Source: Escherichia phage vB_EcoP-611R6 | Sequence record: ON470589.1 | DNA: 45,921 bases | Reading direction: 5' to 3' (one strand) | Part shown: in pieces, positions 42,667 to 43,519 of the stretch | How the letters are laid out: each line of letters opens with the position of its first letter | How positions within the stretch are numbered: the stretch's first letter is position 1 | The notes under the pieces: generated by a model | The model's database searches: none | Told to the model about the DNA's origin: nothing | The model's input: the letters and a program-made list of their open reading frames with translations, nothing else | Made by a program: the position numbers and the translations under genes

Positions 42667-42915
42667 CCATAACAATCGACCTAAAGAGATCACCAAACTG
42701 AGCATGGTTGTAAATTCAACTAACCCAGTGCGTTGACAAAAAATTAGCGCAAGAAGACAAAAAATCACCTTGCGCTAATACTCTGTTACAGGTCACTAAT
42801 ACCATCTAAGTAGTTGATTCATAGTGACTGGATATGTTGTGTTTTGTCGCGTTTTGCAGTCTATTATTTAATCATTAAGTAATCTAATGCTATGATTTTT
42901 AAATTATTTATGTGA

Positions 42916-43095
42916 TTTTGTCATCCTTTAGGTGAAGAAGGTGAACGGTATTACACTGTAGATTATTCTGGTGTTACTGGCTTGCTTGTTCAGGTAGCCA
43001 GAGAGTCAGACGACAGAATAACAGCACTGGAAGAAGAAAACGCAGAATTAAGACAAATGTTATCTGCAATTGAGGCAGCGCTTGCGTCTAAATAA
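42916..43095 (+). pseudogene. Orphan 3' fragment of a tail-fibre/tailspike-like gene (C-terminal coiled-coil tail, no start codon)
   Basis: Open frame ...GERYYTVDYSGVTGLLVQVARESDDRITALEEENAELRQMLSAIEAALASK with a stop at 43093-43095 and an in-frame stop upstream at 42913-42915. Confidence 0.35.
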
Positions 43096-43137
43096 TATTA
43101 ATGGGCCGAGCGCCCCGTTTTATTGGGTAGGATGAAA

Positions 43138-43425
43138 ATGGATATAACACCCTTACTTCATGCACTTTGTGCTGTGGCTGCGCAGCTACTGATTGGTCTT
43201 TTTACCGGAAACTGGGCTTACGGTGCGATAGCCGGTTGTACGTTCTTCATTGCGCGTGAACACACCCAGGCAGAATATCGCTGGATTGAAATGTTCGGGC
43301 ATGGCAAGCGTATGAATATGCCGTGGTGGGGCGGTTTTGATCCGCGCGCGTGGGGTGTGGGAAGTTTGTTGGATTTTTCTTTCCCAATTATCGGATGCTT
43401 ATCGGTATGGATTCTTGCATCGTAG
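43138..43425 (+). CDS. Small membrane protein (about 95 aa, 3 hydrophobic segments) between the acyltransferase and the integrase
   Basis: SD AGGA 5 nt before the ATG at 43138; the track ORF begins at a TTG at 43123; no recognised family. Confidence 0.45.
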   Translation: MDITPLLHALCAVAAQLLIGLFTGNWAYGAIAGCTFFIAREHTQAEYRWIEMFGHGKRMNMPWWGGFDPRAWGVGSLLDFSFPIIGCLSVWILAS

Positions 43426-43519
43426 CGAACACATAATTACAGATGAAACAAAACTGAGACACACAAAGCTTTGCACTGGATTGCAAGGCTTTGTGATATT
43501 CGATAGTTGTTAAGGCTGA

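Follow-up and report, generated by a model that had tools for sequence, protein, structure and literature searches.

A probable HK022-type integrase scar and a conserved small membrane gene at the right end of an argW prophage

The 853-bp interval between the acyltransferase and integrase genes (positions 42667-43519) of Escherichia phage vB_EcoP-611R6 (sequence record ON470589.1) is probably the scar of a crossover by an HK022-type integrase (Int), together with cargo that was brought in through it. We refer to the whole 45,921-nucleotide stretch as the window and count positions from its first letter; its right end is a P22-like prophage integrated at argW. As judged from sequence, the scar has the order P-O-B', in which the P arm of an HK022-type phage attachment site (attP) runs through a 7-base overlap (O) into a half-site (B') inside the tail-fibre gene of a different, lambda-like phage. 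An apparently dead 3' piece of that gene and an intact small membrane open reading frame (ORF) follow, and behind them lies the intS-type integrase gene of the prophage. A preliminary description of this DNA had instead taken the fragment for the relic of an earlier receptor-binding gene of the same phage, displaced by recombination, and had labelled the region, acyltransferase included, as mosaic and of the lysogenic-conversion kind.

Attachment-site sequence joined to a tail-fibre gene

The interval begins AT-rich, as had been described, with a guanine-cytosine content of 0.31-0.39 across 42575-43024 compared with 0.49-0.52 within the small ORF. What accounts for this composition, a remnant of a sib element and attP, had been overlooked. 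Region 42717-42943 is 87% identical to attP/sib of HK022 (X51962) and to the 'prophage attachment site (type HK022)' of mEp235, and 93% identical to the region directly left of int in the P22-like phage Gally. The Int arm sites annotated in lambda as 'int 1' and 'int 2' match the P1 and P2 sites of the window at 20/20 and 19/20 positions, respectively, the single mismatch being common to HK022. The core of HK022 specificity, ATCCTTT-AGGTGAA, is matched exactly at 42923-42936 and occurs once in the window. The interval holds the parts that mark an HK022-type attachment site, namely a sib hairpin outside the P arm, P1 and P2 arm sites, and a C site with the 7-bp overlap. The sib hairpin folds on the minus strand with -29.1 kcal/mol (z=-5.3), and we predict that sib/tI, contributed by an HK022-type integration module, ends leftward transcripts as an intrinsic terminator and serves as their RNase III-type site. 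It can probably still stop leftward antisense transcription from the intS side before this reaches the late operon and the acyltransferase gene. A consensus terminator and promoter scan missed the hairpin, whose loop exceeds 8 bases, and returned promoter-like sites no more numerous than in shuffled sequence.

The change from attachment site to tail-fibre gene can be placed to the base. The final attP-specific base is 42929 and the earliest tail-fibre-specific base is 42937, leaving an exchange interval of exactly the 7-bp overlap. The window reads TTTTGTCATCCTTT-AGGTGAA-GAAGGTGAACGG here, compared with TTTTGTCATCCTTT-AGGTGAA-TAAGTTGTATATT in the attP of HK022, mEp235 and Gally, TTTTGTCATCCTTT-AGGTGAA-AAAGGTTGAGTCG in an authentic prophage attR beside torT (EC190329) and GGATCGGA-AGGTGAA-GAAGGTGAACG in the intact tail-fibre gene of phage Tritos. 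The left flank CATCCTTT is common to the window, HK022, Gally, mEp235 and the EC190329 attR (alignments A1 and A2). A true attP would continue after the overlap with TAAGTTG, the P' arm and an HK022-type int gene. In the window, no C' site, P' arm or HK022-type int or xis gene lies beside the core, and tail-fibre sequence follows the overlap instead. With one HK022 core and no HK022-type int in the window, the site is best read as attR-like and not as attP. The coincidence of the exchange interval with the overlap likewise makes this the P-O-B' architecture of an attR, with the tail-fibre gene in the place of the 'bacterial' partner. The prophage has no cognate integrase for such a site.

The attB site of HK022 is a 21-bp B-O-B' sequence in which strand exchange takes place within the 7-bp overlap and the flanking sites tolerate changes (PMC7736782). 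It is located between torS and torT (PMC6814406), and the wild-type oligonucleotide is GCACTTT-AGGTGAA-AAAGGTT (PMC5512741). The secondary attB that we propose in the tail-fibre gene is GATCGGA-AGGTGAA-GAAGGTG, for which GATCGGAAGGTGAAGAAGGTG is a candidate substrate sequence. Its presumed B' half-site, GAAGGTG, agrees at 5/7 positions with B' of attB (AAAGGTT) and at 5/7 with C' of attP (TAAGTTG). Seventeen exact AGGTGAA sites occur in the 46-kb Tritos genome, among which the tail-fibre site, with its B' score of 5/7, ties for the best flank match. The tail-fibre gene holds two AGGTGAA copies two bases apart (AGGTGAAGAAGGTGAA; Tritos 22178 and 22187, window 42930-42945), the first of which was used by the putative crossover. 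Some tail-fibre alleles (CPww7 and EC190329) have TGGAGAA at the first copy and would hence lack overlap identity to the HK022 attP.

To the right of the overlap, the preliminary description was correct in recognizing the C-terminal end of a tail-fibre protein that lacks a start codon. Positions 42931-43095, the fragment plus overlap, encode the last 54 codons and the stop of a 346-aa Peptidase_S74 tail fibre. Translation of the frame 42916-43095 gives FCHPLGEEGERYYTVDYSGVTGLLVQVARESDDRITALEEENAELRQMLSAIEAALASK, with GEEGERYYTVDYSGVTGLLVQVARESDDRITALEEENAELRQMLSAIEAALASK directly before the stop, and residues 6-59 of this product match positions 293-346 of 346 in the tail-fibre profile phrog_4563 (E=7e-29). 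Alignment to related tail-fibre C-termini, the check that had been suggested, gave 96-97% DNA identity to the 3' ends of Tritos TRITO_21 and of prophage tail-fibre genes. True tail-fibre homology begins at 42930 and not at 42916, the preceding 14 bases being the att-site core. The NCBI Prokaryotic Genome Annotation Pipeline (PGAP) concurs: in the near-identical strain FT130, the equivalent of 42931-43095 is a 'tail fiber domain-containing protein, incomplete, missing N-terminus', and a pseudogene is called in seven genomes. The Peptidase_S74 domain of intact TRITO_21 lies at residues 227-278, and the fragment begins past it, at residue 293. As the fragment has no Peptidase_S74 domain, N-terminal fibre or attachment part, or start codon, we regard it as a pseudogene piece and not as a member gene of the Peptidase_S74 tail fibres, and as a dead passenger that presumably has no present function. 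Substitutions in the fragment are too few for the ratio of non-synonymous to synonymous substitution rates (dN/dS) to tell neutrality from constraint.

Of 5426 complete E. coli genomes, 7 carry the scar, in each case within a P22-like prophage, and it also occurs in one IMG/VR contig laid out like the window and in one metagenome contig. It was found in none of 50,697 phage records. The break falls at the same base in all carriers, the start of the att overlap, and the right-hand contexts beyond it are of at least three kinds. In FT130, as in the window, the scar is followed by intS and argW. In Ec-U3, SB0258h1 and two others, homology stops at 43504 and gives way to an unrelated integrase pseudogene and then a reverse-transcriptase gene; in E10 homology likewise stops at 43504, and in PEC41 the scar lies next to dacD, with homology stopping at 43580. 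The acyltransferase is absent from E10 and PEC41. These differences in right ends and in acyltransferase content suggest that the scar is older than the acyltransferase insertion and several right-end exchanges. In Ec-U3 (extract L010) and SB0258h1 (extract L011), positions 4617-7896 hold, after the integrase pseudogene, small genes and an RNA-directed DNA polymerase of ~1070 aa, and this reverse-transcriptase region may be a defence island that abuts the prophage.

Both presumed parental arrangements exist. The recipient type is represented by the lambda-like prophage at argW of strain CPww7, with the order lom, stf, a hypothetical gene, tail fibre (1041 bp), small ORF, intS, tRNA-Arg and yfdC, which is collinear with window 42931-45000 at 96%. 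The intact tail-fibre gene resides in such lambda-like tail-fibre clusters, after J/stf. The donor type is represented by P22-like Gally, which ends with tailspike, small ORF, a relic of the intS 3' end, sib, attP and HK022-type int/xis. E10 retains, directly upstream of sib, a 45-bp relic of the left 'A' block of the donor, as the donor model predicts. The classical intS-bearing P22-like phages HK620, CUS-3 and Sf6 share window sequence only from 43472-43527 rightwards and have neither the fragment nor the small ORF. In the comparison across argW prophages that the preliminary description had called for, the tail fibre is intact in CPww7 and cut short by the scar in FT130 and the window.

Origin of the junction

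Our favoured model is as follows. An HK022-type Int would have acted between the attP of a P22-like phage resembling Gally and the secondary attB, the latter located in a tail-fibre gene carried by a lambda-like phage or prophage whose right end ran tail fibre, small ORF, intS and att(argW). Homologous recombination between early genes common to both would then, as a second crossover, have cut the cointegrate to unit length. The P22-like product would thereby have exchanged its HK022-type int/xis for a module of small ORF, intS, attP(argW) and torI. The tail-fibre 3' end (the last 159 bases after the overlap) would have travelled along as a dead passenger, the small ORF being the live cargo. 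The scar would afterwards have received other right ends by further exchanges, and the acyltransferase cassette would have been inserted up to the R1 repeat. The cointegrate, or nested intermediate, is a presumed state: we searched for the reciprocal B-O-P' junction with chimeric queries and exact patterns, and it was absent from the 5426 E. coli genomes, IMG/VR and Joint Genome Institute metagenomes.

That absence weighs against the model, as do two further points. The B half of the proposed secondary site agrees with HK022 core sites at only 2/7 positions, and attP and the tail-fibre gene are identical at 12/14 junction bases, such that RecA-independent microhomology joining could yield the same product. 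The order given for the later events (acyltransferase insertion and right-end exchange) is likewise tentative.

The missing reciprocal junction, the poor B half and the shared bases are also what recommends the main rival, integrase-independent joining, in which attP (AGGTGAATAAGTTG) and the tail-fibre gene (AGGTGAAGAAGGTG) were united by illegitimate recombination at their 12 of 14 shared bases. We consider this unlikely. The exchange interval is exactly the Int overlap, with the P arm, C site and overlap complete on the left, whereas a random breakpoint in a ~40-kb genome would hit a given 7-bp window about 2 times in 10,000. Moreover, HK022 Int is established to act on secondary sites that have an identical overlap and degenerate flanks (PMC7736782).

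Displacement in situ, as proposed in the preliminary description, would make the fragment the phage's own earlier receptor-binding gene, removed when a tailspike and acyltransferase module recombined in. A genuine tail-fibre 3' end does lie beside a mosaic region, and E10, PEC41 and the window have different tailspikes upstream of the same cassette. However, the left edge of the fragment is the overlap of an HK022-type att site and not a deletion endpoint: what lies upstream is a complete att P arm and sib, not tail-fibre or other tail-gene sequence, and the break is at that one base in every carrier. The carriers are all podovirus-type, P22-like prophages that use head-binding tailspikes, whereas the intact gene belongs to lambda-like clusters, which suggests that the fragment came from a different phage as the B' side of the exchange. 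No P22-like genome with a full-length S74 gene at this place was found among the phage records or the E. coli genomes. We therefore hold this origin to be very improbable, although the description of the region as mosaic was accurate.

Least probable of all is that the fragment is expressed, either as a small functional peptide (for example, a 37-aa TTG-initiated coiled-coil ORF at 42982-43095) or as a leader promoting translation of the small ORF: the frame is open in 7/7 carriers, and fragment and small ORF are still 42 bp apart, the distance seen in intact phages, but the divergence of the carriers is too recent for an open frame to indicate selection, the TTG has no preceding Shine-Dalgarno sequence, the S74 domain and everything upstream are missing, and the few private changes of carriers are non-synonymous (R>L in E10, E>K in PEC41 and R>M in the window), which fits relaxed constraint in numbers too small to test.

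The integrase-made scar that we favour has a counterpart elsewhere. The block comprising the intS 3' end and its downstream region (A-R) recurs directly left of sib in 434, Gally and EC190329, where the relic comprises the terminal ~84 bp of an intS-type gene and the hairpin downstream of it. Positions 43451-43603 match 24650-24803 of phage 434 (extract L004, 2501-2654), as well as Gally extract L003 (3315-3464) and EC190329 extract L007 (4584-4667). R1 is the last stump of the same relic in the window. This arrangement, the mirror image of the scar studied here, implies a putative earlier module exchange in the opposite direction, and exchanges between HK022-type and intS-type integration modules have evidently been repeated and gone both ways. 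The hairpin at the intS end corresponds to a terminator annotated in the HK620 record (38289..23). The phage 434 record assigns part of the intS relic to a hypothetical protein and CII sites.

The features of the interval and its surroundings are listed in Table 1. The prophage, ~40.5 kb in length, is flanked on both sides by argW-derived repeats; the att core at 44839-44853 recurs at the opposite end (4324-4338), where it adjoins a gene for a 66-aa TorI-like excision factor (4412-4612, minus strand). Because the core is repeated at both ends and the TorI-like gene lies at the far end, the entire prophage is a single IntS/TorI unit like those of KplE1, HK620, Sf6 and CUS-3 (PMC2951348). We also considered a P22-like prophage nested, through an HK022-type att, in a resident argW prophage; this reading was rejected on the single HK022 core and the absence of an HK022-type int from the window, and is further ruled out by the argW repeats that bound the whole prophage and by the position of the TorI-like gene. 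The start codon of the acyltransferase gene shares bases with the stop codon of the tailspike gene (ATGA, 41539-41542), so that the acyltransferase cassette appears to be translationally coupled to the tailspike. An Rfam scan of 42400-45000 returned the tRNA only. At 4632-4647, on the inner side of torI, 16 bp match the tRNA T-arm region (44853-44868) a second time, and the left host flank (1-3882) is a csc-like sucrose-utilisation cluster encoding a GH32 invertase, a PfkB fructokinase and a LacY-type permease.

Table 1 Features of the interval and of the adjoining prophage right end (window positions)
Feature	Position	Strand	Evidence or remark
Tailspike	39623-41542		P22 head-binding domain, Pfam PF09008, E=6e-67
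Acyltransferase (Acyl_transf_3, O-acetyltransferase type)	41542-42666	+	Pfam PF01757, E=1e-23; phrog_3333 O-acetyltransferase, E=1e-37; PGAP coding sequence in FT130
Spacer, 30 bp, no homologue detected	42667-42696		Marks right boundary of acyltransferase cassette; homology to Gally, 434 and EC190329 starts only at 42697
R1, 19-bp direct repeat of intS codons IYNHAQ	42697-42715; second copy 43585-43603		blastn self-match, alignments
HK022-type attP P arm	42717-42929	+	Holds P1 42784-42803, P2 42816-42835 and C core site ATCCTTT 42923-42929
sib/tI element	42734-42784	-	Hairpin 42743-42779, then minus-strand U-tract 42738-42742; aligns to X51962 'sib transcription processing site' (190-239)
Overlap O, AGGTGAA, crossover interval	42930-42936	+	attP homology stops and tail-fibre homology starts (alignments A1, A2, A4)
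Tail-fibre pseudogene fragment	42937-43095	+	B' half-site GAAGGTG at 42937-42943; no start codon
Small membrane ORF, 95 aa, phrog_1443 family	43138-43425	+	Motif AREHTQAEYRWI...MPWWGGFD in Lys/Arg-rich loop
Block A-R, intS 3' end and downstream region	43451-43603		Copy directly left of sib in 434, Gally and EC190329; blastn 88-96%
Hairpin, 14-bp perfect stem, between convergent small ORF and intS	43462-43495		Fold -27.3 kcal/mol, z=-3.8
intS-type tyrosine integrase of this prophage	43520-44713	-	Pfam PF00589, PF22022, PF13356; PGAP 'prophage integrase IntS', PGAP start equivalent to 44677
tRNA-Arg(CCT), argW	44839-44913	-	ARAGORN, Rfam; yfdC beyond

A small membrane gene behind receptor-binding genes

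The live cargo of the scar is an intact gene, with AGGA five bases ahead of its ATG, that matches phrog_1443 over positions 1-94 of 97 (E=3e-54). It carries the invariant motif of the family, R-E-H-T-Q-A-E-Y-R-W-I ... M-P-W-W-G-G-F-D, and all 25 columns that are invariant in an alignment of 35 diverse members (alignment A3), including H8, R40-E41, T43-I50, M61-P62, G65-D68 and D79. With dN/dS values of 0.16-0.24 against its relatives, the small ORF is under purifying selection. Homologues form 582 clusters at 90% identity, from Escherichia, Salmonella, Citrobacter, Leclercia, Enterobacter, Aeromonas and Comamonas, and 449 clusters at 50% identity, of which the 150 listed comprise stand-alone proteins only, 58-146 aa in length. 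The gene is therefore conserved and, given its dN/dS and number of homologues, no chance frame. The call of a three-transmembrane ORF with a good Shine-Dalgarno sequence held for the ribosome-binding site and the intact frame; the three-segment topology is plausible but not proven, as the second of the three hydrophobic segments is short (14 residues). An AlphaFold model with a predicted local distance difference test (pLDDT) score of 91 places helices at 4-23, 26-53 and 74-94. All five Lys/Arg residues lie within the conserved 40-73 loop, which the positive-inside rule would place in the cytoplasm.

The typical place of a phrog_1443 gene is the last position of a receptor-binding cluster, a few bases from the preceding gene or overlapping it, as seen in Tritos, CPww7, EC190329, Gally, HZ41, Lambda_2E9, phiHAP-1 and 5/6 contexts from outside E. 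coli. It follows S74 tail fibres in lambda-like and P2-like prophages, pectate-lyase tailspikes, a tail-fibre assembly gene in phiHAP-1 and, with an ATGA overlap, the tailspike of P22-like HZ41 (extract L023, 3489-3492); in a Kuttervirus-looking Salmonella contig it lies between tailspike genes. In the Lambda_2E9 group of lambda-like gut phages (extract L024, 3886-7285), the small ORF is followed directly by the sitABCD manganese/iron ABC transporter as cargo. The family also occurs in 150-240 kb phages of Aeromonas, Cobetia and Salmonella, the records of which carry no lifestyle label and which, from their size and type, we take to be virulent. One homologue departs from this placement, being chromosomal and outside any prophage in Aeromonas rivipollensis (extract L013, 6001-6309). 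It sits there among genes for a pirin, a RIO1 kinase and lipid A acyltransferases, adjoining two Lip_A_acyltrans genes.

In the window, the small ORF keeps behind the dead fragment the 42-bp spacing that precedes it in intact phages, and the antiterminated late transcript, running through the tailspike and acyltransferase genes, is its probable message. Searches of Pfam, NCBIfam, PADLOC, PDB sequences, folds and the literature returned nothing on its function. In particular, Pfam, NCBIfam, PADLOC and PDB searches gave no homology to known conversion proteins (GtrA flippase, acyltransferase or Wzy inhibitor). The lysogenic-conversion label that the preliminary description attached to this ORF is thus not borne out: besides having no match in Pfam, NCBIfam or PADLOC, the gene is translationally coupled to late tail-fibre and tailspike genes, and its family extends to the large phages mentioned above. 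Among the genes of the interval and its borders, only the neighbouring acyltransferase qualifies as an O-antigen conversion type (gtrABC/oac). The genomic placement points to a possible late-expressed partner of the receptor-binding genes rather than a classical lysogenic-conversion gene. One tentative guess, which we would not rate as better than possible, is that the protein assists the receptor-binding module late in infection from the inner membrane, by limiting re-adsorption, DNA entry or the display of receptor polysaccharide on the infected cell.

Comparison with known systems

The usual account of mosaicism in phage genomes invokes homologous or random illegitimate recombination. In the present case, one mosaic boundary, located to the base, is with good probability the work of a site-specific integrase acting on a secondary site in another phage. 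The visible outcome would be a P22-like phage that switched its integration site from the torS-torT type to the argW type. The scar also offers an explanation for three otherwise puzzling features: the AT-rich leader, a stray terminator and the presence, in a prophage of podovirus type, of a tail-fibre pseudogene. In addition, the analysis flags a widespread, strongly conserved small membrane protein that travels with receptor-binding genes and that, to our knowledge, has never been studied. Neither the scar nor the small ORF overturns current understanding.

A broader reading would make Int recombination into secondary sites of tail-fibre genes a recurrent route of module swapping, the scar a still-live Int substrate and phrog_1443 a new class of inner-membrane factor of receptor modules. 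We regard this extension as doubtful. If it were true, HK022-type Int and Xis could recombine their attL with 42717-42943, driving module exchange or chromosomal rearrangements between argW and tor; HK022-type prophages occupy torS-torT in ~5% of E. coli (PMC6814406). The phrog_1443 protein, for its part, would be a partner of receptor-binding genes in sipho-, myo-, podo- and jumbo phages alike, for example by stopping polysaccharide export or DNA entry late in infection.

By functional analogy only, the small ORF may be compared with small genes at the end of tail or tail-fibre clusters that exclude superinfection, namely cor of HK022, phi80 and mEp235, HK97 gp15 and P22 SieA. It resembles cor of mEp235 and HK022 in being the last small gene after the receptor-binding genes. 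Proteins that block DNA entry, such as HK97 gp15 and P22 SieA (for the latter, PMC10883804), are usually small and located in the inner membrane. Cor, gp15 and SieA show no sequence or fold similarity to the small ORF, and they differ from it in that the phrog_1443 family is also found in large, presumably virulent phages and is coupled to late genes. From this occurrence and coupling, the small ORF may act in the lytic cycle rather than in lysogens.

The intS-TorI recombination module of KplE1, HK620, Sf6 and CUS-3 (PMC2951348) is like that of the window in having intS beside attL at argW with its own promoter, a TorI-like factor at the far end and the att core at both ends. Its classical members differ in having no small ORF, tail-fibre fragment or attP relic downstream of int. 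Close to the scar itself is the HK022-type attR at torS-torT, as in EC190329, which has the same sib/tI, P arm, arm sites, ATCCTTT and AGGTGAA, and in which phage sequence likewise stops right after the overlap. There, however, B' is AAAGGTT next to torT, whereas here it is GAAGGTG in a tail-fibre gene, and the window has no HK022-type int/xis or attL partner, the host prophage using IntS at argW. Helper-embedded satellites are reported to be elements with a tyrosine integrase that insert in a late or tail gene of another prophage (PMC10111431). That lifestyle is regular and reversible, whereas the event proposed here is a one-off secondary-site integration by a full phage that left one fossil junction.

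In mechanism, the scar is classical. Lambda secondary-site lysogens and the hybrid att sites of lambda bio-type phages arise when a crossover at a degenerate site sharing the overlap leaves a P-O-B' hybrid. As in those hybrids, the phage has been deprived of its own int/xis and the site has foreign DNA on its right. Unlike them, the captured DNA is the right end of another phage, including a complete alternative integration module, so that the event would be a swap of integration modules rather than transduction of a host gene, and its resolution was probably homologous rather than by aberrant excision. Secondary-site integration leading to a hybrid att is thus an established process, and what is new in the case proposed here is its target, the tail-fibre gene of another phage, and the resolution of the junction to single bases.

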